64,000 nucleotides of DNA from Deltaproteobacteria bacterium. GTDB lineage: Bacteria; Desulfobacterota; BSN033; UBA1163. The stretch covers positions 99,100 to 163,099 of the forward strand of contig JAGXTA010000071.1 of NCBI GenBank assembly GCA_018333535.1, in the 5' to 3' direction. The notes under the pieces were generated by a model, which was given only the letters and a program-made list of their open reading frames with translations, ran no database searches and was not told the origin of the DNA. Shown one piece after another: positions 25,268 to 58,610 of this stretch. How positions within the stretch are numbered: position 1 is the stretch's first letter; every line of letters begins with the position of its first letter. Both the position numbers and the translations under genes were made by a program.

Positions 25268-25403
25268 TTTTTATCCCTTCGTAAAAAAGAGGTTTTTTAA
25301 ATTTTAATTAATCGATATTTATTAAGCAATTAATATGCCAAATAATTTCAGAGCTTTCAATAAAGACTACAAGAGAATTCGATAAAACCTTGAATCCAAA
25401 AAA

Positions 25404-25452
25404 GCGCCCCTGGCCCGACTCGAACGGGCGGCACACGGATTAGGAATCCGTT
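25404..25452 (+). repeat. attL: 49-bp direct repeat identical to the 3' part of tRNA-Arg(CCT)
   Basis: gcgcccctggcccgactcgaacgggcggcacacggattaggaatccgtt at 25404-25452 matches 34810-34858, which is inside the tRNA gene on the minus strand. Confidence 0.85.
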
Positions 25453-25580
25453 TTAGGCGCTTTCCTTTAAATTCCCACCGATTCCTTTTAATACATAATT
25501 TCCCTTGACATTCAATAATTTACCTGATACTATCTTTCCTATGAGTTCCTTTTGCTACCCTTTGCTTAATGACCGTTTTG

Positions 25581-25696
25581 GGGGACAGGTGGGGGACAAA
25601 ATTAAACGAATAATAATCCGTGTCCCAAAATTTCGTTTCAAAAAGCACATGGATAAATAATCCGTTCCCCATTTCCGGGGGACAGTGGGGGACAAC
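25581..25696 (+). promoter_or_regulatory. direct repeats between attL and int (candidate integrase arm-type binding sites)
   Basis: ggggacaggtgggggacaa (25581) and ggggacagtgggggacaac (25677); also ataatccgtgtccc (25611) and ataatccgttcccc (25658). Confidence 0.45.
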
Positions 25697-25722
25697 CAAA
25701 TCTATATCAAAGGAGAAAGGCC

Positions 25723-26922
25723 ATGTCAAGACGGAAAGCGACGGAGTTTGAGGGCGTGAGATACCGGAGCCATCCGAGCCGGAAGCATGGGATCAAGAAT
25801 GATCAGTATTTCTCCATCCGTTACCGAGTGGACGGGAAGAGAGTCGAGGAGGGTTTGGGGTGGGCCAGCAAGGGGATGACGGCAAAGAAGGCAGCGCTTC
25901 AGCTTGCAGAGCTTCAAGAGGCGCACAGGAAGGGGACAGGTGAACCTGTAACCCTTCGAGAGAAACGGAAGATTGCCAGGGCAAAGAGAGGGAAGCAAGA
26001 GAAACAGGGGATCACATTCGGAGATTATTTCATCAATACTTTCATTCCACAGGCTGTCATTGAAAAACCGAGGGAAACGAAAGATAAAAAATCCCACTAT
26101 GAACACTGGATCAAGCCGGTAATGGGCGCCCTTCCCTTCCCGGAGATCGGCGTCCTTGAATTAGAGAGGGTCAAGACAAACATGTTGACCGCTGGTAAGG
26201 CTCCCCGAACGATTCAATATGTGTTTTCAACAATTCGGCGGGTATGGAATGATGCAAAATTGAAGGGGATCGTATCAGAGGAAAGTCCGACCCGGAAGAT
26301 CAAACTGGACCGCTTCGATAACAAGCGGGCCAGGTATTTCACCCATGATGAGGCGGAAAAATTCTTGACCGAACTGAAAAAGAGAAATGGTTCGTTATGG
26401 GATATGGCTCTCGTTTCTCTTCAATCGGGCCTTCGCTTCAGTGAAATTGCGAACCTGAGATACGGGGATATTGACCTAAAGAGAAATATCATTGGGATCC
26501 GGGACAGCAAGGGAGGTTTTTCAAGATATGCCCGAATGACCGAAGAGGTCAGGAATGTTTTTTCAAGAATGGAGCCCGGGGCCAGGGAAGCCCTCATTTT
26601 CCATGATGCCGATGGAATGAGGATCAAGAGGCCGTCGAAAATTTATATGAAGGTCATAGACGGCCTGGGATTCAATAACGGCGTAACAGACCGGCGACAA
26701 CGATTGACATATCACTCTTTGCGACATACATATGCAAGCTGGCTTGTAGATCGGGGAGTCGGGCTGTATGATGTTCAAAAACTTCTCGGTCATAAGAACA
26801 GCCAACTAACCGAGCGATACAGCCATTTATCAGATACCCGGCTGGACAATGACGTGAGGGAATTCGAAAAAGGAATCAAGCAGGCCCGGAGAGGTAAGGT
26901 CGTTGCAATAGGAAAGCGTTAA
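25723..26922 (+). CDS. tyrosine-type site-specific integrase (phage integrase family)
   Basis: 399 aa; C-terminal catalytic region LTYHSLRHTYASWLVDRGVGLYDVQKLLGHKNSQLTERYSHL (R..HxxR..Y). Confidence 0.9.
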   Translation: MSRRKATEFEGVRYRSHPSRKHGIKNDQYFSIRYRVDGKRVEEGLGWASKGMTAKKAALQLAELQEAHRKGTGEPVTLREKRKIARAKRGKQEKQGITFGDYFINTFIPQAVIEKPRETKDKKSHYEHWIKPVMGALPFPEIGVLELERVKTNMLTAGKAPRTIQYVFSTIRRVWNDAKLKGIVSEESPTRKIKLDRFDNKRARYFTHDEAEKFLTELKKRNGSLWDMALVSLQSGLRFSEIANLRYGDIDLKRNIIGIRDSKGGFSRYARMTEEVRNVFSRMEPGAREALIFHDADGMRIKRPSKIYMKVIDGLGFNNGVTDRRQRLTYHSLRHTYASWLVDRGVGLYDVQKLLGHKNSQLTERYSHLSDTRLDNDVREFEKGIKQARRGKVVAIGKR

Positions 26923-27015
26923 ATTGAAAATGGGGAAATAGGCGGGCCAGCCGACAAGCCGGGAACCCTACCCGGTTTTTCCCCATTCACTACAAGGGCA
27001 GCGAAGGGGGCTGAG

Positions 27016-27597
27016 ATGGAAAAGACAGGATGGTTGGAAAATTTCTTGGAGCCATTGGAGAGGAGAGCTAATGAAATTTTAAAGACTCAATCGAATATTA
27101 AAGAGGACTCCAATTTTAAAAAACTGAATAAGGGGAAAGGTGTCTCTCGGTGGCAAGCCAATCCAAAATATCAAAGTGCGAAAGATCTTTTAAAACAGAT
27201 ACAATCTTTTAAAGAACTTATTTTAAAAAATGGAACACCGAGGGACGTTATCTATAAATTAACATGGATACTCGGAATCGCCTATGATATGGGCTGGCCG
27301 GTCCCAAGCCAATATGTGATCGGGCGCTCTAAAGGCGGGAAAGCCCCAAAGAAAAAAAAGGGAATCCTTTTAGCGATTAAATGGGCAAGGGAAAAGAGCA
27401 AACAAAAGAGTGCGCGGGGTTTATGGAATTATTTTAAAAATAAAAACTTTGAAAAAGACGAGTATGAAGTCTATTTCTATCAAGATCCGACCGGCGCGGG
27501 TGAAGATCTTCTTTGCCAAAAAATCGACAGTATAGAGAAAGGGTCTATCAAATTCGAGGCATTTAAAAAATACGTTTACAATAAAAATAATGGGTAA
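27016..27597 (+). CDS. hypothetical protein (integrative-element cargo)
   Basis: 193 aa, Lys-rich, no recognisable domain; followed by an intrinsic terminator. Confidence 0.45.
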   Translation: MEKTGWLENFLEPLERRANEILKTQSNIKEDSNFKKLNKGKGVSRWQANPKYQSAKDLLKQIQSFKELILKNGTPRDVIYKLTWILGIAYDMGWPVPSQYVIGRSKGGKAPKKKKGILLAIKWAREKSKQKSARGLWNYFKNKNFEKDEYEVYFYQDPTGAGEDLLCQKIDSIEKGSIKFEAFKKYVYNKNNG

Positions 27598-27635
27598 GTA
27601 AGCCGCTTTCTTACCTTTCCCGAATGTTATATTGA

Positions 27636-27670
27636 CCTCCAGAGAATCAAATTTTCCTGGAGGTTTTTTT
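27636..27670 (+). terminator. intrinsic terminator
   Basis: Hairpin cctccag-N14-ctggagg followed by TTTTTTT. Confidence 0.6.
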
Positions 27671-27901
27671 ATGAGGAAAACAGCAGTTGATCTTTCGGGC
27701 CTAAAGTCCAAATGGGGCTCTACCGTCGTCGCGCGGGAGGAAATTCGTAATTTTTCCGGGGGAGCGATTTCCGAGAAGTATGTTGCTAATCTGGATTCTC
27801 AGGGCCGGGGGCCTTCTGGGCGATTTCGATGCGGCCGCAAGATTTTATACCCGGTCGATGATTTGATCCGATGGCTCGAGGCTCGTTCGGAGGTTGCTTA
27901 G
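27671..27901 (+). CDS. Xis/AlpA-like helix-turn-helix DNA-binding protein (putative excisionase/regulator)
   Basis: ORF track 27632..27901 includes the terminator; the likely start is MRKTAVDL at 27671. C-terminal ...KILYPVDDLIRWLEAR resembles excisionase/AlpA HTH proteins. Confidence 0.5.
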   Translation: MRKTAVDLSGLKSKWGSTVVAREEIRNFSGGAISEKYVANLDSQGRGPSGRFRCGRKILYPVDDLIRWLEARSEVA

Positions 27902-28022
27902 ATGAGTCTCACGAATGACGATACGATAAAAGACTTCCAAATCGTGGACTTTCCCGAAGAACTAAAGGCGCAGGTTAGCGCTGTGATCCTTACAGCATTC
28001 TTCCGGGAGAAGGAGAACGGGC

Positions 28023-30245
28023 GTGGACAACAATCAGAATAATTTCCCCCCCCATCTCCAACGATTTCTTTCCAAATTACAGAAAGTCAAATACATCGGC
28101 AGTGGCCGCCACATGGCAATTTGTCCTGCTCACGATGATGGACAAGCTTCCCTGAGCATCTCACAGGGGGATGACGGTCGAGTGCTGCTAAAATGTTTTG
28201 CCGGGTGCGCGGCGCAAGACGTGATGGAGGCCCTCGGTTTGGAGATGAAGGACCTTTTTCCACCCAAGGAGGAGGGGGTATCCTCTCCCTCTCCCCCGAA
28301 AAGGCGTGCAACCGTGCAACCGTCCTGTCAAGTATCTGAAAATACTAAGAATGAACTGGTTGCAGTACCGGAAGGGTTGCATACAACCGGTTCGCAGGGC
28401 TGCACTCTACAGCAGTACGCCACCCTGAAGGGATTGCCCATTTCTTTTCTTCGGGAGCTTGGACTTTCTGATGTCAAATATATCGGGAAGGCCGCGGTAC
28501 GAACACCTTACTTTAATGCTAAACAGGAGGAGATTTCGGTTCAGTACAGAATCGCACCGGATGGGAATAATAAATTTCGCTGGAGAAAGGGATCGAAGCC
28601 CTGCCTGTATGGGACAAATCGTGATTACAAGTCGAACGGAAAGGTGATCATAGCTGAAGGGCCATCCGATGCACAGACACTTTGGAACGCCGGTTTCTCT
28701 GCCCTGGGGTTGCCCTCTGCGGACGGTTGGAAAGAGGAAAGGGATGCTACTTTGTTGGATGGAATCACTTCTATATTTGTTGTGATCGAACCGGATCAGG
28801 GTGGAGTTGCCGTCCAAAAGTGGTTGGCCACCTCTCGTATCCGTCACCGCGTCCGACTGCTGAGTTTTGATGGATACAAAGACCCTTCTGCACTTTATCT
28901 CCATGACCGCGAGAACTTTAAAACCAATATGCAGAAAGCTATGGCGAAAGCTATCCCATGGACAGAAGTGGAGGCCAGGCAGAATAAAGAAGAGAGGGAT
29001 AAAGCCTGGGCAATGTGTAAATCTCTGGCAGAGGATCCCGACATCCTGTCTTTATTTGTCGAGAAAATTAAAGGGATGGGGGTTGCAGGGCAAGAGAAAG
29101 AGGTTCAGATTCTATACCTCATGTTGACCAGTAGACATCAGAAGAGGCCTGTTTCAGGCGTTGTAAAGGGTCAGTCGGCAGGCGGGAAGAGTTATATCGT
29201 TGAAAAAGTTAAGAAGTTTTTTCCCGCATCTTCCTATATTGAGTTGACGGGGATGTCTGAGCACTCCTTAGCTTACGGAGAGGAATCCCTTTCAAATCGG
29301 TTTCTCATTATATTCGAGATCATGGGAATTTCAAATGATATTGCAAACTATCTGTTGCGCTCTCTTCTTTCAGAAGGTCGGGTTTTATACGAGACTGTTG
29401 AACCAGATTCTACCGGCAAACTGAGGGTGAGACGGATTGAGCGACAAGGACCAACCGGTACTATTATCACTACCACTCAAATTCAAATCCACCCTGAAAA
29501 CGAAACAAGACTATTATCGATCAACATTTCAGATTCACAAAAACAAACAAAAGACATTATGGTTGCCCTATCCGCTGAGGAAGAGGAGCCTGATTTGAGC
29601 GCTTGGCAAGCACTGCAAACATGGATTGATTTTGAAGAACATAAGGTGGTGATCCCTTATGCCGAGAATCTGGCAAGGCTGATTCCTCCCGTTGCGGTCA
29701 GGCTTCGGCGGGACTTTACTCAGGTGCTGAATTTGATCAGGAGCCACAGCATATTGCACCAGGCGAATAGAGGGCGGGATTCCAAGGGGAGAATTATTGC
29801 CGAGGTTAGAGATTATGCCATAGTGAGGGAGCTAACTTCCGAGATCATATCTGAGGCTATCGGATCAACAGTCTCTTCCAGAATCCGTGAAGTGGTTGCT
29901 GCGGTAAACACCATCATTACAGGGACAGACTTGGAACCCGGAAAGCCCTCTGCAACCGTACAGGCCATTGCAACCTCTTTAAAAAAGGATAAATCTACGG
30001 TCTGGAGGCAAGTTATGGCAGCCAGAAAAAGAGACTATTTGGTAAATAACGAGAAAGTAAAGGGAAAACCTGCGCAGATAGTGCTCGGAGACCCTTTACC
30101 TGACGACCTGGTTATCCTTCCAAATCCCGAAATGTTGAACGGTTGCACGGTTGCAGTCGTTTCCGAGGGAGGGGGTAGGGACGACCTCGCTACCACTAAA
30201 AATGGACGTTACGAGGTGATGAACGATGGACAACTCACTTATTGA
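28023..30245 (+). CDS. DnaG-type primase (zinc finger + Toprim) fused to a C-terminal P-loop NTPase
   Basis: 740 aa; zinc-binding CPAHDDGQASLS...CFAGC; Toprim residues VIIAEGPSDA and FVVIEPDQGG; Walker A GQSAGGKSY in the C-terminal half. Confidence 0.65.
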   Translation: MDNNQNNFPPHLQRFLSKLQKVKYIGSGRHMAICPAHDDGQASLSISQGDDGRVLLKCFAGCAAQDVMEALGLEMKDLFPPKEEGVSSPSPPKRRATVQPSCQVSENTKNELVAVPEGLHTTGSQGCTLQQYATLKGLPISFLRELGLSDVKYIGKAAVRTPYFNAKQEEISVQYRIAPDGNNKFRWRKGSKPCLYGTNRDYKSNGKVIIAEGPSDAQTLWNAGFSALGLPSADGWKEERDATLLDGITSIFVVIEPDQGGVAVQKWLATSRIRHRVRLLSFDGYKDPSALYLHDRENFKTNMQKAMAKAIPWTEVEARQNKEERDKAWAMCKSLAEDPDILSLFVEKIKGMGVAGQEKEVQILYLMLTSRHQKRPVSGVVKGQSAGGKSYIVEKVKKFFPASSYIELTGMSEHSLAYGEESLSNRFLIIFEIMGISNDIANYLLRSLLSEGRVLYETVEPDSTGKLRVRRIERQGPTGTIITTTQIQIHPENETRLLSINISDSQKQTKDIMVALSAEEEEPDLSAWQALQTWIDFEEHKVVIPYAENLARLIPPVAVRLRRDFTQVLNLIRSHSILHQANRGRDSKGRIIAEVRDYAIVRELTSEIISEAIGSTVSSRIREVVAAVNTIITGTDLEPGKPSATVQAIATSLKKDKSTVWRQVMAARKRDYLVNNEKVKGKPAQIVLGDPLPDDLVILPNPEMLNGCTVAVVSEGGGRDDLATTKNGRYEVMNDGQLTY

Positions 30246-30489
30246 TGGATGTCTCGAAGAGATCGGCAAAGGATACAGGCCGGGCCTGCTGCCGTGGCTG
30301 AAACAGCAGCCAGCCCGATGGCGACGGCTGCTGAACCTGGAGGACGCAATCAATAAGGCGGCGCTTGGGGGCGGTCAGGTAGGGTTGACGGCGGCACTGT
30401 CCGAGTACAAGGACTTCTTCCGGGAGATGGTGACGGCGTACGAAATGAGTAACACATTTCCATTATTCGAAGGCAGGGCAAATGAGTAA
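30226..30489 (+). CDS. hypothetical small protein
   Basis: 87 aa ORF overlapping the neighbours by a few codons. Weak support. Confidence 0.3.
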   Translation: MDNSLIDGCLEEIGKGYRPGLLPWLKQQPARWRRLLNLEDAINKAALGGGQVGLTAALSEYKDFFREMVTAYEMSNTFPLFEGRANE

Positions 30490-31303
30490 ACACCGAAAGA
30501 CAATAACCATCCAGGAAACAGCATATTCAATCCTGGCTGCTCATAATCCAATGACTGTCCGGCAGGTCTATTATCAGCTGGTTTCCAGACAAGTCATAGA
30601 AAATAACCGCGGCCAGTATCAGGCCGTCTCAAATGCTTTGGTTCAGGCGAGACAAGAGGGATTCATCCCATGGGAATGGATCGAGGACAGAACGAGACGA
30701 CCAAGGTCGGTCAGTATGTGGGACAACTTATCTGATTTTGGCTATACAGTTCTTTCTTCATATCGCCGCGACGTGTGGGATTCTCAACCTCATTATATTG
30801 AGGTATGGCTGGAGAAGGATGCGCTCTCAGGGATATTCGAGGGTGTACTGGAACCCTACGGAGTGACCTTGAATGTAGGCAGAGGATATGACGGCTGGGA
30901 CTCCATCCATAATGCAGCTGAGCGTTTCAATGATGGGGACGGAATGACTATCCTTTACTTTGGCGATTTCGATCCGTCCGGAGAGGACATGGCACGGTCC
31001 CTAAAAGAGAGATTAGCCTTTTTTAAGTCAAGTCCGGAAATCCTGAAAGTGGCGTTAACCTACGGGGACATAACCCGTTACAACCTGCCTCCCGACTTCA
31101 CCAAAGTAGGGGATACCAGACAAAAAAATTTCGTTGCCAAGTATGGAAATGTGGCTGTTGAGCTTGACGCTTTACCTATCGATATTCTCCGAGATCGGAT
31201 AGTTAGGGAAGTGGAGGCACGGATGGACCTGAATGCACTGGCAGGGGTGAAGCTGATTGAAGATGTAGAGAGAGAGGAACTGGCAAGGGCATTGGGGCGG
31301 TGA
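30482..31303 (+). CDS. Spo11/TopoVI-A-like protein (5Y-CAP tyrosine motif + Toprim)
   Basis: 273 aa; TVRQVYYQLV (RxxYY catalytic-tyrosine motif), IEVWLEKDALSGIF (Toprim Glu motif), ILYFGDFDPSGEDM (DxDPxG Toprim motif). Motif order and spacing match type IIB topoisomerase A / JetD-like folds. Confidence 0.55.
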   Translation: MSKHRKTITIQETAYSILAAHNPMTVRQVYYQLVSRQVIENNRGQYQAVSNALVQARQEGFIPWEWIEDRTRRPRSVSMWDNLSDFGYTVLSSYRRDVWDSQPHYIEVWLEKDALSGIFEGVLEPYGVTLNVGRGYDGWDSIHNAAERFNDGDGMTILYFGDFDPSGEDMARSLKERLAFFKSSPEILKVALTYGDITRYNLPPDFTKVGDTRQKNFVAKYGNVAVELDALPIDILRDRIVREVEARMDLNALAGVKLIEDVEREELARALGR

Positions 31304-31416
31304 TAACAGTGCGGGTCCTTCCTGGAGGTTTGGCGGTGAGACTGCGCTGCCCGCGATATTCGAGAGGGAGTGAAAATTTTTTTGACTTGACGTTTTACTT
31401 TAGCTATCAATAATGA

Positions 31417-31746
31417 GTATCCGAGGAGGGTTACCTGAAACTCGTCACTCAGGCTAAATTTGCAAAATTAAAAGGTGTCTCCAGACAGCGGGTCGGCCAG
31501 TGGGTCCGGGATGAGATCATCGAGCTGAGGGGTGGCAAGATTGATCCTATACAGGCGGATAGCGATCTTAACAACCGTCTCGATCATTCAAAGCGGCTTG
31601 ATTGGGAGTTTACCAATTTAAAGCCACCAGTTCCATTCAAGAAGATCTCTACTTTTGAGATACCAGACCTGGAATTGGATTTTAGCGCTTATTTTAAAAA
31701 AAGAGCTCTCAAAAATAAGAGAACGAAGAAAGATCGGGGGCGGTGA
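31417..31746 (+). pseudogene. HTH DNA-binding protein gene lacking a canonical start (possible frameshift relative to ATG at 31413)
   Basis: Frame encodes ...LKLVTQAKFAKLKGVSRQRVGQWVRDEIIEL... (HTH) but has no in-frame ATG/GTG/TTG. An ATG at 31413 opens a different frame (MSIRGGLPETRHSG*). Confidence 0.35.
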
Positions 31747-31846
31747 TCCTTCGGTCACACCGGTTGGTGACTATAAATCTCTTCTTGCCCGGTTGAAGCG
31801 CGGTGGCGGTGGAAACTGGCTTTAAAAAAATCAGAGGAGGATCGAA

Positions 31847-32407
31847 ATGGAAATGACGATCAAAACATTTGCTGAGCGTGAAGGAATGAATGTGGTGACG
31901 GTGGAAGAGGCCATCCAGCTGGGGATCCTTCCCATTACAGTGGACGGTTTGATTCCAGTGGATCAAGTCCAAGGGCATTTAGAATGCCTTGAACGGAATG
32001 AAAAAGAGGCCCGGGTTGCACCGATTCGGGAGGAAGTTGAGAGCCGGATATCGGGACGCCGGTCCTATTCAACCTCATTGAAGCCGAACCCGGGAGATAG
32101 TGTGGGGGAGAAAATTTCTTCTTCACGTTTCCATTCAGTCTTTCCGGAATCCCGTCCATTGGGAGAATTTTTCAGTCCAGAAGGTAAGGCGGCTTTTGAG
32201 AAGGCGGCTGCATCCGGCCAAATCCGGATCCTCCAAAAAACGGGTAGCATGAGCGTGGCCTCTTCGTCTTCTCCCCTGGAGGAGAGGGCAAAGCAGACTT
32301 GGAATAGGGATGCCGATATTCGGGAGGAATTCAAAAACAATTTTGCTTCTTATCTCGCTTTTCTCAAACAGAGCGAGGCAGGAAATGTTCGGATCTTTCG
32401 GAAATAA
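31847..32407 (+). CDS. hypothetical protein (integrative-element cargo)
   Basis: 186 aa ORF, no recognisable domain. Confidence 0.4.
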   Translation: MEMTIKTFAEREGMNVVTVEEAIQLGILPITVDGLIPVDQVQGHLECLERNEKEARVAPIREEVESRISGRRSYSTSLKPNPGDSVGEKISSSRFHSVFPESRPLGEFFSPEGKAAFEKAAASGQIRILQKTGSMSVASSSSPLEERAKQTWNRDADIREEFKNNFASYLAFLKQSEAGNVRIFRK

Positions 32408-32469
32408 ATTTTGTTCTTAGACGTATGGCAAAGATTTTTCAGTCTCGAAGCGAAAGGAGGTAAGAAAAA

Positions 32470-32697
32470 ATGGCTAACTACGAGCAAAACGTTTGGTATC
32501 AAGGAGGCGACGACGCATTGGCATTGAACGAAGCGCTCCGGACTGCCTGGTCAGAAAGACCTGCCCTGAGATCTGCCTTTGCTTCTTTGGATCAGTTTTT
32601 GGCGGTGAATCGTGTCGCCTTTGCGGCTGAGGCGGAATCTACAGGTAAAAGGTTTAGGGAAATTATTGGATACTTTCCGGTTGTTGAAAATCCGTAG
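32470..32697 (+). CDS. hypothetical small protein
   Basis: 75 aa ORF. Confidence 0.3.
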   Translation: MANYEQNVWYQGGDDALALNEALRTAWSERPALRSAFASLDQFLAVNRVAFAAEAESTGKRFREIIGYFPVVENP

Positions 32698-32762
32698 AAG
32701 AAAGGAGCGGTTATGACTAAATTGGAAGAGAAGAGGAACATTCTCTTTGAGAAAAAAAAGTT

Positions 32763-33278
32763 GTGGATGAAAAAAGACTTTCTCTCTCCAGTTTGAAAGG
32801 TCGGCAGGATAAGATGATCGCTGATTTGGCCGACAAAAAGTTTCAGCTTGAAACGGCGATGATGGAGCACCAAAGATTACAGGGCGAAGTTTCATTGGGC
32901 CAGGCTCCCGAGAAAGATCTCTTTCGGGTGGCAAAGGAGATCGAGGAGTTGAAGCTCCAGATCCAGGAGCTCGAGTTACTCAATTCGTCCTTTCCGAAAG
33001 CGAGAGATTCCCTGGAGACGGAGATCCGGAAGGCTGAAAATATTTGCCAGGGACTGACCCATGACTTTTGGTATCACATCATGGAGCTGGAAAAGGAAAA
33101 AGCAAAGGGTAATACCGCGCTCTTGAGGGCATGGGCCGCGTTTAATCTGTCAGGCGGAGGGGCTTCGTTCGGCCAGTTCCTTTCGAAGCACTTTAATTCT
33201 TACTTTGTTGAAGACGTTGAAAAAATATCGAAAGAACTTGAGGCCGAGTATTTAAAAGGAGGTGATCGGAATGGTTGA
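32763..33278 (+). CDS. hypothetical coiled-coil protein
   Basis: 171 aa, heptad-rich (LQIQELELLNSS...). An A8 tract at 32751-32758 just upstream, plus an overlapping alternative start at 32713 in another frame. Confidence 0.4.
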   Translation: MDEKRLSLSSLKGRQDKMIADLADKKFQLETAMMEHQRLQGEVSLGQAPEKDLFRVAKEIEELKLQIQELELLNSSFPKARDSLETEIRKAENICQGLTHDFWYHIMELEKEKAKGNTALLRAWAAFNLSGGGASFGQFLSKHFNSYFVEDVEKISKELEAEYLKGGDRNG

Positions 33279-33465
33279 TGTGAATTTGACAGCGATTTTT
33301 GGCGAGGTTTTTCAGGATGCCGATGCATTGAAGGCCATGGCAAAGGTTTTGAGCCGGCAACCGGAATCAATAAGAGACCGGATCATTAACGAATTGGCGT
33401 TGGCGACAAATATTACCGGAAAAGCATGGCGAGATAGAATGCGGGCATTGACCAGTAAGAGATAG
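33262..33465 (+). CDS. hypothetical small protein
   Basis: 67 aa ORF overlapping the previous gene's end. Confidence 0.3.
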   Translation: MIGMVDVNLTAIFGEVFQDADALKAMAKVLSRQPESIRDRIINELALATNITGKAWRDRMRALTSKR

Positions 33466-33560
33466 GTTCTCTGTAAATAAGACAACGCCCTCCAAGTATA
33501 ACCTTGTCCATTTTTAGACAAGGTCAGTAAGAGATAGGTTCTCTGTAAATGAGACAACGC
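33451..33560 (+). repeat. two ~36-bp direct repeats flanking a hairpin (iteron-like)
   Basis: cagtaagagataggttctctgtaaat[a/g]agacaacgccc at 33452 and 33523; the hairpin accttgtc-cattttta-gacaaggt lies between them. Confidence 0.6.
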
Positions 33561-34053
33561 CCGCGACCGAGGCGTGTATCGGCGACGATATCCATTCCTC
33601 TTTCCGAAGTAGTACCCTGGTCGGCGGTGATCCGGCCAGGGGAAGATCGGGACAACCCTTGTCATGAAAAGATGGCCTATCAGAAAAAAAAAGGAAAGCC
33701 TTCCGGACCCTCTTCCAGATCCGGGCAACTGGGGCCTTCGCTTTCTATTTTTTGAGGTTTTAAGCGAACTCCTCACCTTTTTAAAATCGAGGAATGGGAA
33801 GGGAAATATCTCTCTCCCTGGTTCTCACCGGGAGGCTAAAAGAGAAGTGATCGATAGGGGGATCACCCTTCAGGGGCTTGGAATTCGATCATGCGTCGAT
33901 GATCTTTCCGATTCATTACAGGCTAATGAGAGGTGGGCGGTCATCAATGGCAGGCCTACAAGGGTTAAGGTGAATTAAGAAAAACGGCTGTTTTTTGGAA
34001 GGTGCTTTTCGAAAGTTGCCCGGGGGTGTGCCTGGAGACGGACCCGAGAGAAT

Positions 34054-34518
34054 TCATCGAAGAGGGGATCGAAGAGTTGATTGACTTTTTAAATTATATT
34101 GAGTTTGCCATGCTCCAGGGGAAGCTCCCCTTTTGTAGGTGGGCTTTTGAGGTAAGATTGTGATACATCTATCTAAGGCGTTGATATATTGAACTTGTTC
34201 AATGGCAATAAGGGACCTTGAATCCTTTCTATTTTTATCACCTTCTTTCTGCCTTTCCTTCTCTTTCTGGTATTTGATTTCACTTATTACCGCCGTCCTT
34301 GTCGGTATATCCTCATTCTCCCTTGCCTGAGCTTTCACCTTTTCCACGATTTCGGGGTGCTTGGCGATGGCTTGGGCATGATGTAGTCGCTTATGTGATA
34401 TCCCTATTTTTTCATGTCGTGCCTTACCATCACGATGACCTTTGGGGATACCTTGATATTTTTCTGGAGGGATTTTTTCTGCCAGCTCCCCAATCCCCGC
34501 ACCAATATCCAGAAGCAT
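34054..34518 (-). CDS. hypothetical protein at the right end of the integrative element
   Basis: 154 aa; N-terminal MLLDIGAGIGELA; basic, Lys/Arg-rich middle. No confident family. Confidence 0.35.
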   Translation of the reverse strand: MLLDIGAGIGELAEKIPPEKYQGIPKGHRDGKARHEKIGISHKRLHHAQAIAKHPEIVEKVKAQARENEDIPTRTAVISEIKYQKEKERQKEGDKNRKDSRSLIAIEQVQYINALDRCITILPQKPTYKRGASPGAWQTQYNLKSQSTLRSPLR

Positions 34519-34810
34519 CTCTCAGGCTGGATCGCAAAAGGGGGAGATGGATTAATGAGAATATACCGGAGGGGGGAGCTAAGGGAATTGGAGTGCGACT
34601 AAAAACAGTCACACTCTCTAATGCAGGCATAGGCAGGAACGAAAGCCCGATACTAAGGGGATTGGCCGAGTCGCAGTCCATACGGGCGGAGGAGGTGAAC
34701 CAAATGGGAGTCTATAAGACCGTTCATGGCGGGGGACAGATGGGGGATAAACCGTGTTGGGCCAGGAAAATAAAAAAGGCTTGAAACCCTCCAAGCCTTG
34801 ATAGTCTAAG

Positions 34811-34884
34811 CGCCCCTGGCCCGACTCGAACGGGCGGCACACGGATTAGGAATCCGTTGCTCTATCCACCTGAGCTACAGGGGC
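34811..34884 (-). tRNA. tRNA-Arg (anticodon CCT)
   Basis: rc reads GCCCCTGTAGCTCAGGTGGATAGAGCAACGGATTCCTAATCCGTGTGCCGCCCGTTCGAGTCGGGCCAGGGGCG. Cloverleaf with anticodon loop TTCCTAA and T-loop TTCGAGT; no encoded CCA. Confidence 0.85.
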
Positions 34885-35149
34885 ATCTCAATCCAACAAT
34901 ATGATTTTCACGCAATTTCGTCAAGACTATTTAAAATAAATTTTACTTCAAGGCAATCCTTTATGGAGGCTACGTCAACGTTTTCCTGTCGCGACGGCGG
35001 GCCAGCACGGCGGGCCTTGCGAAACGGGCGTCTTCACCCTAACCCTTGCCGAAGAATTATTTAGAACGAATTTTTGGATGGAAGTCTGAAGGGGTGAGAG
35101 CCGAAATATTTCCTGGAGGGGGAGGCTGCTCTTCTAAATCGTTAACCTT

Positions 35150-35374
35150 CTATTTGGACTCAACTATTTGACCTGTCATCTTGTCAATGGTCACTTCAAC
35201 AAAATCCATTCTTTCCATATTCCAATCATTCCCTAAAAACTTTTTCACCCAATTCATGATCGATTCAGGGGTGATTCGTTGAGGGTCTTTTCTTCTTTCG
35301 GGGAGAATCCCAATTAAATGACGTTGGTCCTCTTGGTTGTGATGGTAGAATTCATAAGCCAATATATGTTCCAT
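35150..35374 (-). CDS. small conserved protein, paralog of 49433..49618
   Basis: 74 aa; shares YEFY...HL[IV]GILPERRK[DE]PxRIT.ESI.NWVKK with the 61-aa ORF at 49433. Located 12 nt downstream of the degenerate-kinase gene. Confidence 0.5.
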   Translation of the reverse strand: MEHILAYEFYHHNQEDQRHLIGILPERRKDPQRITPESIMNWVKKFLGNDWNMERMDFVEVTIDKMTGQIVESK

Positions 35375-40302: not shown

Positions 40303-40583
40303 AAGTAAAATCTATCAGAATTCCCGAGGAAATCGATCAAGCTATAGATTATGTTGCGCGTTCTGAGAAACTTGAAAAGACAAGTTCCCTTCGCAAACTA
40401 ACAAGAATGGGCTTCGAAGTTTATGTGGCAAAGTTATATGAGAGGGGTAAACTGACCCTCCGTGAAGCAGCTAATCTCTTACATCTAAACCTGATGGAGA
40501 CCATAGATCTCTTGAGTGAAATGGGTGTCAAAGGTAATATCAAAGCAAAGGATGTTATGGAAAGTTTAAAGGCATTATCTTAA
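40299..40583 (+). CDS. UPF0175-family putative antitoxin
   Basis: 94 aa; ...EAANLLHLNLMETIDLLSEMGV... matches the UPF0175 pattern. This family is commonly paired with DUF3368 PIN proteins. Confidence 0.55.
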   Translation: MKVKSIRIPEEIDQAIDYVARSEKLEKTSSLRKLTRMGFEVYVAKLYERGKLTLREAANLLHLNLMETIDLLSEMGVKGNIKAKDVMESLKALS

Positions 40584-40589
40584 ATCAAG

Positions 40590-40860
40590 AAGCAAATTAT
40601 TTTAAAAAAGTCCATTAAAGTTGAAACGTCCAAGAACAGAATATTGGAATGGAAAGCCCTTGGGAAGAAAGTCTCATCAAATTGGGATGGCCTCTCAGCC
40701 GTCGAAGAAATCCGCCAGCAAAGGGAGAAGGTACGGTGAAAAGAATAACTCTCGACAGTTCTGTAATCGTATCGTCGCTCTTAGAAAAGGAGCTTCGTCA
40801 TCAGGAAGCTTTTGAAATTCAATTCTGCGGCAGGTTGTGAATCTACTCCCCAATGGAAAA
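40590..40860 (+). pseudogene. degenerate duplicate of the antitoxin + PIN-fragment unit found at 58325-58610
   Basis: ~270 bp with >85% identity to 58325-58600; overlapping short ORFs 40621..40815 and 40649..40840 are its broken reading frames. Confidence 0.6.
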
Positions 40861-49772: not shown

Positions 49773-50250
49773 CAGTATGCCGTGTAGAACATATGACTTG
49801 TCGGTTGAAGTCCGGCCGTGGGAATTCGGCAGTTCGCCCACGTAGCCGGAGGGAGGTGTAAGGGGTAACCTGAAGCACTAAGTTCCCTGACAAAGGCTCA
49901 GGAAGTGAGCCGAGCAAACCTGCGGGTTGCAGCGAAAGCGAACCTATATGTAGCCTCGTGAACGGAAACGGAGCTGCCGATCCTATTGTCAGGAGGAGAA
50001 GGCCGAAGCGGAATGCACATCAGGCAACGGAAGCATACGAAGAAAAGCAGAGAGCCCAAAATTTATCCCTACAGATATCTTTATGACAATCTTAAATTAT
50101 ACAAGATACCGACGACTGCTCCGTGGACTCAGACTGCGAAAGCTTCTGGAAGAAGATGATCGGAAAGCCGTATGCGGGAAAATCGCACGTACGGTTTGAT
50201 GAGGGGGAGCTGGAGATAGAGCCCTCGCTACTACGCCAGCTCTCTACTCT
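49772..50250 (+). ncRNA. group II intron remnant (domains V and VI present; no IEP ORF, no canonical 5' GUGYG end)
   Basis: 50165-50196 aagccgtatgcgggaaaatcgcacgtacggttt matches the domain V consensus (GAGCCGUAUGCG-loop-CGCACGUACGGUUC) including the AGC triad. It is followed by a domain VI-like helix (ggagctgg...ccagctct) with a bulge. Confidence 0.5.
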
Positions 50251-50353
50251 ACCCATTTGCACTTTTAAAAAGTAAAAAGAATTTGATAATAAGGAAAGAA
50301 TTTTTAAGGCAGTGCCTTTCATTCATAACTCAAAACTTATAATTCAACATTCA

Positions 50354-58275: not shown

Positions 58276-58485
58276 ATGCCAAAATCATTAGAAAGTAGAT
58301 TGAATGATTTAATTCATGAGATTACAGAAATCAAGAAGCAAATTATTTTAGAAAAGTCCATTAAAGTTGAAGCGGCCCAAAACAAAATACTGGAATGGAA
58401 AGCCCTGGGGAAGAAAGTCTCATCAAATTGGGATGGCCTCTCAGCCGTCGAAGAAATCCGCCAGCAAAGGGAGAAGGTATGGTGA
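58276..58485 (+). CDS. small antitoxin-like protein (partner of a truncated PIN)
   Basis: 69 aa; upstream RBS AGGAGG. A degenerate copy lies at 40590-40740. Confidence 0.4.
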   Translation: MPKSLESRLNDLIHEITEIKKQIILEKSIKVEAAQNKILEWKALGKKVSSNWDGLSAVEEIRQQREKVW

Positions 58486-58610
58486 AAAGAATAACACTCG
58501 ACAGTTCTGTAATCGTTTCGTCGCTCTTAGAAAAGGAGCTTCGTCATAAGGAAGCTTTTGAAATATGGACAACCATATTATCCGGGAAATATTTTGCAAT
58601 CATGCCTTAA
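58479..58610 (+). pseudogene. truncated PIN-domain gene (N-terminal 43 codons only)
   Basis: MVKRITLDSSVIVSSLLEKELRHKEAFEIW... then stop. A PIN N-terminal motif without the remaining ~90 aa. Confidence 0.5.

Follow-up and report, generated by a model that had tools for sequence, protein, structure and literature searches.

We report here a 9.4-kb integrative element from an uncultured deltaproteobacterium (contig JAGXTA010000071.1 of assembly GCA_018333535.1), found in a 64-kb stretch of DNA that was analyzed as a whole and is called the window below. The element spans window positions 25402-34858 and is a real, mobile insertion in a tRNA-Arg(CCT) gene; its integration and mobility are well supported. 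Three of its features are unusual, namely a replicase in which a DnaG-type primase is fused to an MCM-like helicase, a Mini-A topoisomerase-like protein residing outside a virus, and an int-alpA RNA leader. With a confidence somewhat above even, we read it as an integrative element of phage-satellite type that replicates itself, resembling the 'type C' phage-inducible chromosomal islands (PICIs) and the virion-encapsidated integrative mobile elements (VEIMEs), and lacking a terminase of its own. The element can probably copy itself, and its spread would depend on a helper phage, which is proposed because the element carries no virion, lysis, or conjugation genes.

The boundaries are set by a direct repeat whose two 51-nt copies, at 25402-25452 and 34808-34858, are identical. 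It was located by a repeat finder and confirmed by string comparison, and 49 of its 51 nt (34810-34858) form the part of tRNA-Arg(CCT) that runs from the anticodon stem to the 3' end. According to ARAGORN and Rfam, this is the sole tRNA gene of the window (34810-34884, minus strand). An earlier note on this DNA had described a 49-bp tRNA duplication bounding positions 25404-34858, which is right for the tRNA part, the true boundary being 2 nt further out. Between the repeats lie tightly packed plus-strand open reading frames (ORFs) and one minus-strand ORF, and the GC content of the element is not distinct from that of its flanks.

A search for an uninterrupted attB in a strain without the insertion, the check proposed in the earlier note, yielded a precise empty site in a 2267-nt metagenomic contig (L005, JGI sample 3300037880), in which the left flank is followed by one repeat copy, the remainder of the tRNA, and the right flank. 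Compared with the window, this contig has 7 mismatches over 2037 nt of left flank and a single one over 172 nt of right flank (99.4-99.7% identity), and because such a near-identical strain has a precise empty site, the element was gained or lost recently. Exact-protein look-ups of the two flanking host genes retrieved several assemblies of this organism, and two long contigs are identical to the window. The opposite pattern, the same segment in conserved synteny without an att duplication, is not what is seen. The element thereby combines a tRNA 3' repeat next to an intact tRNA, an empty-site polymorphism, and a recombinase with intact catalytic residues, by which integrative elements are recognized. 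In our best explanation, a tyrosine recombinase inserted the element by crossover between the anticodon loop and the 3' end of tRNA-Arg(CCT), and the element restores the 3' half of the tRNA and supplies a putative terminator. A 9415-nt Logan contig was considered as the excised circle and rejected, since it holds the element's interior extended by precisely 30 nt into either repeat, and 30-nt overhangs are the signature of a break in a k=31 assembly graph. As a separate observation, when positions 1-109 of L005 are compared with the window, the match ends ~95 nt upstream of the 5' end of the tRNA, at 34979, and the sequences are unrelated from there on; this second strain-variable spot is on the promoter side of the same tRNA and includes a 74-aa ORF (35150-35374).

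The left end of the element forms a module with counterparts in two related loci, L258 and L255. The integrase, correctly recognized in the earlier note as a tyrosine recombinase (PF00589, phrog_1), retains the RxSE, HxxR, and Y catalytic motifs in its translation and is 77% identical to the integrase of L258 and 72% to that of L255. The proposed arm-type repeats were likewise borne out: all five copies of the GGGGGACA octamer in the window lie within 300 nt of the element's two ends, and the pairs are kept in L258 and L255 in both sequence and position. Downstream of the integrase gene, the int-alpA motif scores 41.7 bits, above the gathering score of 35.8. The three-stem structure of Rfam is common to five copies in related elements, with compensatory changes in 7 of 18 base pairs; outside the window the motif was located in L016 (312-380 and 7990-8059), L255 (732-796), and L258 (about 1590-1680). 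The motif always ends ~17-20 nt before the next start codon, which belongs to the 193-aa gene or a homologue of it, to a 374-aa ORF, or to an integrase gene. Rfam lists int-alpA RNA (RF02996) as a small RNA (sRNA); because of the fixed distance to the next start and the compensatory base changes, comparison of the copies suggests a cis-acting 5' leader and not a free-standing sRNA.

The 193-aa protein that follows the leader gave no match in Pfam, PHROGs, or PADLOC and nothing meaningful against PDB sequences, and it has only four homologues in a collection of 5.8 billion proteins; the two with contigs examined, both in sibling elements, sit between the integrase and the helix-turn-helix (HTH) gene. 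As for the HTH protein itself, the earlier assignment as Xis/AlpA-like holds in that there is an HTH_17 match and that homologues of 63-66% identity occupy the same place in L255 and L258, whereas the match is weak. A distinct cluster of small ORFs, with a median length of 73.5 aa, was found upstream of the replicase in 24 related loci (the window excluded), and HTH_17 matched three ORFs in the census of bounded elements described below. Excision would be carried out by the integrase acting on the GGGGGACA arm sites, probably together with the AlpA/Xis-like HTH protein, to give a circle with attP.

The replication module is dominated by a 740-aa protein, a DnaG-type primase joined to a P-loop ATPase, in agreement with the primase-NTPase fusion proposed earlier. 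Its primase occupies residues 1-310 and its AAA+ domain about 340-520, with the Walker A motif GQSAGGKS at G383-S390; PHROG profiles match just the first ~320 residues, as 'DNA primase'. An AlphaFold2 model (pLDDT 86, pTM 0.72) was built on 70 homologues, across which Walker A, E432, and R496 are invariant. Residues ~340-700 match MCM AAA+ domains with their winged helix, and in the model a beta-hairpin between helix 438-451 and strand 480-484 takes the position of the pre-sensor-1 hairpin, while no clear helix-2 insert is seen there. As modeled, the protein has the AAA+ fold with this hairpin, closest to MCM and followed by a winged helix, that marks the MCM family, and it would act as both helicase and initiator.

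The known systems closest to this replicase are SCCmec Cch and, beside it, BcMCM of a Bacillus cereus prophage. The primase of BcMCM is of the archaeo-eukaryotic type, unlike that of the element, which combines a zinc finger and a Toprim domain of the DnaG type. BcMCM provides a precedent for a primase-MCM fusion, and its N-terminus is described as only weakly similar to primases (PMC2715239, PMC3273815). The element's helicase is also of the same fold class as Rep of the Staphylococcus aureus pathogenicity islands (SaPIs). The alpha protein of phage P4 is a primase-helicase with a C-terminal DNA-binding domain, thus having the same functional layout, and its helicase is of the SF3/D5 type. 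In functional terms, the 740-aa protein would be the counterpart, in one chain, of P4 alpha or of the 'pri-rep' unit of PICIs.

Two small ORFs adjoin the replicase gene. The 46-aa ORF upstream corresponds to a ~95-aa protein encoded between the HTH and replicase genes in L251 (9643-9930) and L090 (3422-3859), the sequence pattern of which may resemble that of SpoVG. The 87-aa protein downstream, judged from its counterpart in L251, appears to be a conserved partner of the replicase.

The TopoVI-A-like protein of the earlier note proved to be a Mini-A (phrog_6247) that matches 85 phage records at 31-38% identity. Its residues R27-Q-V-Y-Y31, E111, D162-F-D164-PSG, and VELDAL (224-230) align with those of phage Mini-As, so that all catalytic motifs are intact. 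The subfamily was defined by Takahashi et al. 2019 (PMC7671362) and was found there in viruses and proviruses only. As in that subfamily, the protein is about 270-300 aa long, has a shortened 5Y-CAP domain bearing RxxYY, a Toprim domain that contains E and DxDxxG, and a C-terminal box of the xWELDAL type, and no B subunit is encoded nearby (PMC7671362); no GHKL protein or B subunit was found among the element's proteins with Pfam. It therefore has the defining features of a Mini-A with a W to V change in the C-terminal box, which reads VELDAL and not WELDAL. A further difference from the subfamily is its setting, since here and in eight related loci the gene stands in a small element free of virion genes, beside a primase-MCM replicase. 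The co-transcribed Mini-A may aid topology or resolution during replication.

The replicase belongs to a large family, with more than 2200 homologues in the protein collection, 310 matches among 185,579 species genomes from many phyla, more than 568 metagenome matches, and ~6 full-length copies in 2.9 million IMG/VR contigs. Its hosts include isolates of Rubrobacter, Rhizobium, and Microvirga, as well as metagenome-assembled genomes (MAGs) from the Chloroflexota, Planctomycetota, Acidobacteriota, Nitrospirales, Desulfobacterales, and others. When neighboring ORFs were clustered for 162 loci, only tyrosine or serine recombinases and small HTH proteins recurred, and the remainder was variable. 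Direct repeats of a tRNA 3' end bound 14 relatives, which are 5.8-15.8 kb in size and use tRNAs for Arg, Ala, Gly, Met, Pro, Thr, Val, or Leu. In a Rubrobacteraceae MAG (OZ243918.1), three copies of the primase-MCM replicase were observed (L023, L034, and L049), which suggests several co-resident elements.

The left-end module is shared by elements with other replicases. L258 has the attL and the leader, and its proteins match those of the element at 77% identity for the integrase, 72% for the 193-aa protein, and 66% for the HTH protein, but its replicase is a T7-gp4-like Toprim-DnaB protein. L255, of at least 9.86 kb, adjoins a 95% identical tRNA-Arg, has a 72% identical integrase and an int-alpA motif, and carries yet another replicase together with a small terminase (phrog_57, E 2e-23). 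Sequence comparison thus portrays the element as a mosaic, in which the left-end module is combined with interchangeable replicases and cargo.

On the side of the replication module, the closest replicases with enough genomic context are those of L250 (70% identity), L090 (62%), and L251 (59%), and each of the three loci encodes a large terminase; the Mini-A of L090 is 74% identical to that of the element. The other scanned ORFs of these loci gave no capsid, portal, or tail match and no recognizable small terminase. These elements measure about 9-12 kb, or ~9.5-11.5 kb where bounded, and a tRNA bounds both of those whose boundaries are complete; two of the three are interrupted by insertion sequence transposases (ISL3 in L251 and DDE_Tnp_1 in L090). 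Satellites with a large terminase as the sole packaging gene would be unusual. In a census of 12 further bounded elements, the large terminase was the most frequent recognizable cargo (about four elements); behind it came HNH nucleases and DNA methylases, along with a single small terminase and one or two major head proteins.

Satellites use terminase subunits to redirect packaging (PMC10085698, PMC9618062), and a satellite-like lifestyle is favored because these relatives, too small to be phages, carry terminase subunits. We infer this lifestyle from the relatives and not from a property of the element itself. A plasmid-like integrative replicon lacking a transfer route of its own, which would excise, replicate by means of its primase-helicase, reintegrate, and spread only vertically or passively by transformation, vesicles, or generalized transduction, would explain why integration and replication modules are the element's sole recognizable functions and why no packaging, relaxase, or virion gene was found, and most members of the replicase family do lie in elements without recognizable phage genes. 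We consider this replicon unlikely, given that both sets of closest relatives carry terminase subunits, that Mini-A is otherwise phage-associated, and that the presence of the family in many phyla and at different tRNA genes points to efficient horizontal transfer.

Pfam and PHROGs were scanned with twelve of the element's ORFs (the 46-aa and 56-aa ORFs were left out) and PADLOC with ten. None of the twelve matched a capsid, portal, tail, lysis, terminase, or relaxase family, so the absence of capsid, tail, and lysis genes stated in the earlier note was upheld, and conjugation genes were equally lacking in these scans, with no relaxase, coupling protein, or Mob-family match. The earlier note had also offered an integrative mobilizable element as an option. 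Such an element would borrow the conjugation machinery of a co-resident conjugative element and carry an unrecognized oriT, possibly with a non-canonical relaxase; the small size, the integrase and HTH protein, and the lack of virion genes would suit it, an oriT could hide in the repeat- and palindrome-rich non-coding regions, several ORFans have no assigned function, and the helpers of many such islands are not known (review PMC11389934). Nothing was found in support of it, there being no relaxase, coupling protein, or Mob match in the element, its siblings, or the 25 commonest families of a 12-relative census. Where a transfer-related gene can be recognized in relatives, it encodes terminase, HNH nuclease, or capsid protein. 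We regard mobilization as improbable, and prefer the satellite because relatives sharing either module carry terminase genes.

Decay from a satellite or small prophage that once bore a terminase, with loss of the packaging genes and of the ability to spread, could account for a large terminase that is present in relatives with 59-70% identical replicases and missing here, for a 46-aa ORF that is a truncated form of the ~95-aa protein of relatives, and for a right half made up largely of ORFans. This we hold to be a slim chance, as the att repeats are identical over 51 nt though attL is not under tRNA selection, the empty-site strain has only 8 differences in ~2.2 kb of flank and hence points to a recent event, the catalytic motifs of integrase, replicase, and Mini-A are intact, and the ORFs are tightly packed on one strand.

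Placed beside known satellites, the element falls outside the P4-like, PICI Type A and B, and capsid-forming PICI (cfPICI) classes and fits only the ambiguous 'Type C' pattern. The PICI model of SatelliteFinder has five core components, of which Types A and B need four or five, while three of five define the ambiguous 'Type C' (PMC10085698). Among PICIs, the closest are the Gram-negative ones with int-alpA-pri/rep and the Pri/Rep modules of SaPIs. Three of the five functions are present here (integrase, alpA or stl, and pri-rep), so the PICI-like reading of the earlier note stands as far as these go; packaging and capsid-redirection genes (terS, ppi/rpp, capsid morphogenesis) were not detected in the element. 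It differs from PICIs in having no small terminase, Ppi, Rpp, or capsid-morphogenesis gene, in fusing primase and helicase in one 740-aa protein with a DnaG-type primase, in carrying Mini-A, and in its host, an uncultured deltaproteobacterium. From cfPICIs it differs by the absence of a capsid, portal, protease, head-tail connectors, and either terminase subunit; a few distant relatives do encode a large terminase plus a major head protein.

With P4-like satellites the element shares the integration into a tRNA gene and a size of about 10 kb, as well as a putative AlpA-like gene and one large primase-helicase with a C-terminal DNA-binding domain. It departs from them in its MCM-like helicase and in the location of the integrase at the tRNA-distal end. 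SatelliteFinder has seven core components for P4-like satellites; of integrase, alpA, and the alpha primase-helicase, the integrase is present, the HTH_17 match is below cut-off, and the primase-helicase is MCM-like and not of the P4-alpha type; the arm domain of P4-type integrases was not detected with Pfam, and no element ORF matched Psu, Sid, Delta, or Epsilon in Pfam or PHROGs. The 171-aa helical protein was weighed against psu-delta-sid and gave only generic coiled-coil fold matches. With no psu, sid, or delta found, the P4-like membership suggested earlier was abandoned.

In gene content the element is also like VEIMEs, small integrative elements of environmental bacteria whose definition is that they were sequenced from virus particles (PMC9618062). 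Like the element, they encode integrase, AlpA, and primase/helicase, lack major capsid genes, and carry mostly uncharacterized cargo, and some encode a small terminase or an HNH nuclease (PMC9618062). The element differs in being absent from IMG/VR, and neither its type of replicase nor Mini-A is reported as a VEIME hallmark. Phage-inducible chromosomal minimalist islands (PICMIs) and tycheposons are small integrative elements of a VEIME-like kind.

Several observations weigh against the satellite reading. The element contains no recognizable packaging or helper-interference gene, and not even a terminase remnant, as the large terminases of three relatives gave no tblastn match to the window. 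No helper phage is known, and phage structural genes are absent from the rest of the 64-kb window, which, screened for a helper prophage, holds ordinary chromosomal genes and PIN and HepT toxin-antitoxin pairs. Neither a circular copy nor one derived from virions turned up: terminal overlaps occur in none of the contigs of ~250 related loci, none of which is circular, and neither the element nor the 171-aa protein family is present in IMG/VR. The HTH_17 match of the HTH protein, at E 2e-4, stays below the Pfam cut-off. Finally, the 38-nt repeats are without counterpart in relatives with similar replicases. A megablast search of the whole element against phage records gave no match.

In the life cycle that we propose, the 740-aa protein would initiate and prime replication at an internal origin, and a helper phage would carry the copies onward. 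The integration and excision step is backed by the att repeat and the empty site; we infer the steps of replication and helper-borne spread, as well as the aid of the HTH protein to excision. Candidate origins are the 31304-31846 gap, with its GGCGGTG copies and AT-rich stretch, and the region of the 38-nt repeat pair (33453-33562). Four GGCGGTG copies flank the AT-rich core of the gap, and 6 of the 10 copies in the window, where 3.5 are expected, are inside the element. SaPI origins consist of iterons flanking an AT-rich region, and by analogy with them the gap is a candidate origin. Each 38-nt repeat holds an AGAGA/TCTCT palindrome, and the pair flanks an 8-8-8 hairpin. The iteron-like pair of the earlier note exists, at 97% identity; tested as replicase iterons, the repeats gained no support, for neither shared k-mers nor comparable close repeats turned up in elements whose replicases are 59-70% identical. 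The pair is a candidate iteron, operator, or packaging site. A set of four GTGCAACC octamers within the replicase gene, against 0.64 expected, was dropped because 2 of 100 shuffles equaled it, and allowing one mismatch gave no enrichment.

A broader proposal, which we put forward tentatively as a possibility, is that of a large, undescribed, cross-phylum family of minimal satellites built around the DnaG-primase/MCM-like/winged-helix replicase, in which this member, having no terminase, would use Mini-A and ORFan cargo to take over the packaging of a helper. The packaging genes of such a family would range from none through a small terminase or a large terminase to a large terminase plus capsid, and the HTH proteins encoded downstream of Mini-A would be candidate analogues of the small terminase. 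Were this so, Mini-A would gain a testable role in satellite replication or packaging.

Well-studied satellites come almost all from Enterobacteria, Firmicutes, and Vibrio. Small integrative elements with an integrase, an AlpA-like protein, and a primase-helicase are left aside by satellite-finding tools as the ambiguous 'Type C' class, and the element described here is a clean case with exact boundaries and an empty site in an uncultured deltaproteobacterium. It is tied to a replicase family of hundreds of species in at least ten phyla, in which the cargo that can be recognized is frequently just one terminase subunit. Should these elements be satellites, they would widen the known host range and packaging strategies of phage parasitism, and they would also offer a compact system for addressing the role of Mini-A, initiation by a DnaG-MCM fusion, and the target of the int-alpA leader; if they are not, this gene set alone does not identify a satellite. 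The features of the element are compiled in Table 1.

Table 1. Annotated features of the integrative element, in window coordinates
Feature	Position	Strand	Evidence or remark
attL	25402..25452	.	Displaced copy of the tRNA-Arg(CCT) 3' 49 nt plus 2 nt; single copy in empty-site contig L005
Promoter-like site upstream of int	25505..25533	+	TTGACA-17-TACTAT, extended TG; consensus scan only
Arm-type integrase sites, two tandem pairs (GGGGGACAGGTGGGGGACA, GGGGGACAGTGGGGGACA)	25573..25695	+	Pair kept in L258 at 233-252
Tyrosine integrase, 399 aa	25723..26922	+	PF00589 E 2.5e-28; phrog_1 E 7e-51
int-alpA RNA motif (Rfam RF02996), 68 nt	26931..26998	+	Leader ~17 nt upstream of next gene
193-aa protein, function not assigned	27016..27597	+	Part of conserved left-end module
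AlpA/Xis-like small HTH protein	27671..27901	+	76 aa from ATG 27671; ORF opens at 27632 (89 aa)
46-aa ORF	27902..28042	+	Internally deleted relative of ~95-aa protein; tblastn E 3.6e-6
Replicase, 740 aa	28023..30245	+	Zinc finger and DnaG/Toprim primase, MCM-like AAA+ ATPase, C-terminal winged helix
87-aa protein	30226..30489	+	Overlaps end of replicase gene; 51% identical to 86-aa ORF at same position in L251
Mini-A, type IIB topoisomerase A-subunit-like, 273 aa	30482..31303	+	phrog_6247 E 1.5e-61
543-nt gap after Mini-A	31304..31846	+	Candidate origin and/or regulatory region
Possible CTG-start ORF	31435-31749	+	104 codons, no ATG/GTG/TTG start; HTH-like N-terminus (TQAKFAKLKGVSRQRVGQWV)
186-aa ORFan	31847..32407	+	N-terminal Cox/MerR-like HTH; phrog_575 E 4e-5, residues 3-30
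75-aa ORF	32470..32697	+	Called in ENA and JGI annotations; no Pfam, PHROG, or PADLOC match
171-aa protein	32763..33278	+	Long antiparallel helical hairpin plus small helical C-terminal domain
67-aa ORF	33262..33465	+	No Pfam or PHROG match
Two 38-nt direct repeats	33453-33490, 33525-33562	+	97% identical, 72-nt spacing
104-aa ORF	33664..33978	+	Called in JGI and ENA; coding doubtful; no Pfam or PHROG match
154-aa charged protein	34054..34518	-	Sole minus-strand gene; no significant Pfam, PHROG, PADLOC, or PDB match
Arm-type site pair beside attR (GGGGGACAGATGGGGGATA)	34724..34750	+	Equivalent pair ~60 nt from tRNA in L255
Terminator-like hairpin and T-run	34776..34799	-	Directly past tRNA 3' end, element-supplied; consensus scan
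attR	34808..34858	.	Repeat copy making up 3' part of functional tRNA
tRNA-Arg(CCT), intact	34810..34884	-	ARAGORN; Rfam tRNA 62.5 bits

The cargo genes have no homologue in the ~250 related loci. The 186-aa protein retrieved itself and one fragment only among 5.8 billion proteins; being an ORFan dissimilar to the small terminase of L255, it was not accepted as a small terminase, an idea that stays speculative. The family of the 171-aa protein comprises 24 representative clusters, and its model (pLDDT 90) returned generic coiled coils only in fold and profile searches. In the excised circle, the geometry is such that the 154-aa gene would diverge from int across attP; its best PADLOC match, to Cas5 (E 0.016), was taken as noise. 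None of the ten ORFs scanned gave a PADLOC defense match, and noise-level hits to JetD (Toprim segments) and to DRT (primase-like, E 8e-4) were set aside. The suggestion that the cargo serves defense or helper interference has found no support so far, PADLOC being empty and the cargo consisting of ORFans or members of tiny families.

Within the gap downstream of Mini-A, the possible CTG-start ORF, which is unannotated, is preceded by a strong GAGGAGG Shine-Dalgarno sequence 5 nt before the CTG and by a promoter-like site at 31387-31414. The related loci hold no homologue of it, and its only two matches, both weak (E 0.04-0.07) and to unannotated regions of Wolbachia phage WO, were discarded.

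Elsewhere in the window, a secondary BLAST match with L007/L008 revealed a ~237-nt inverted repeat of ~95% identity at approximately 40582-40818 and 58328-58564. The surrounding region is rich in toxin-antitoxin genes, with four PIN genes, two HepT/MNT pairs, and a DUF3368/UPF0175 pair. Positions 49798-50252 on the plus strand match the Rfam group II intron families RF02003 (89.5 bits) and RF00029 (53.5 bits), which indicates a group II intron there; a similar RF02003 match also occurs just outside the related element in L250 (10624-10768).

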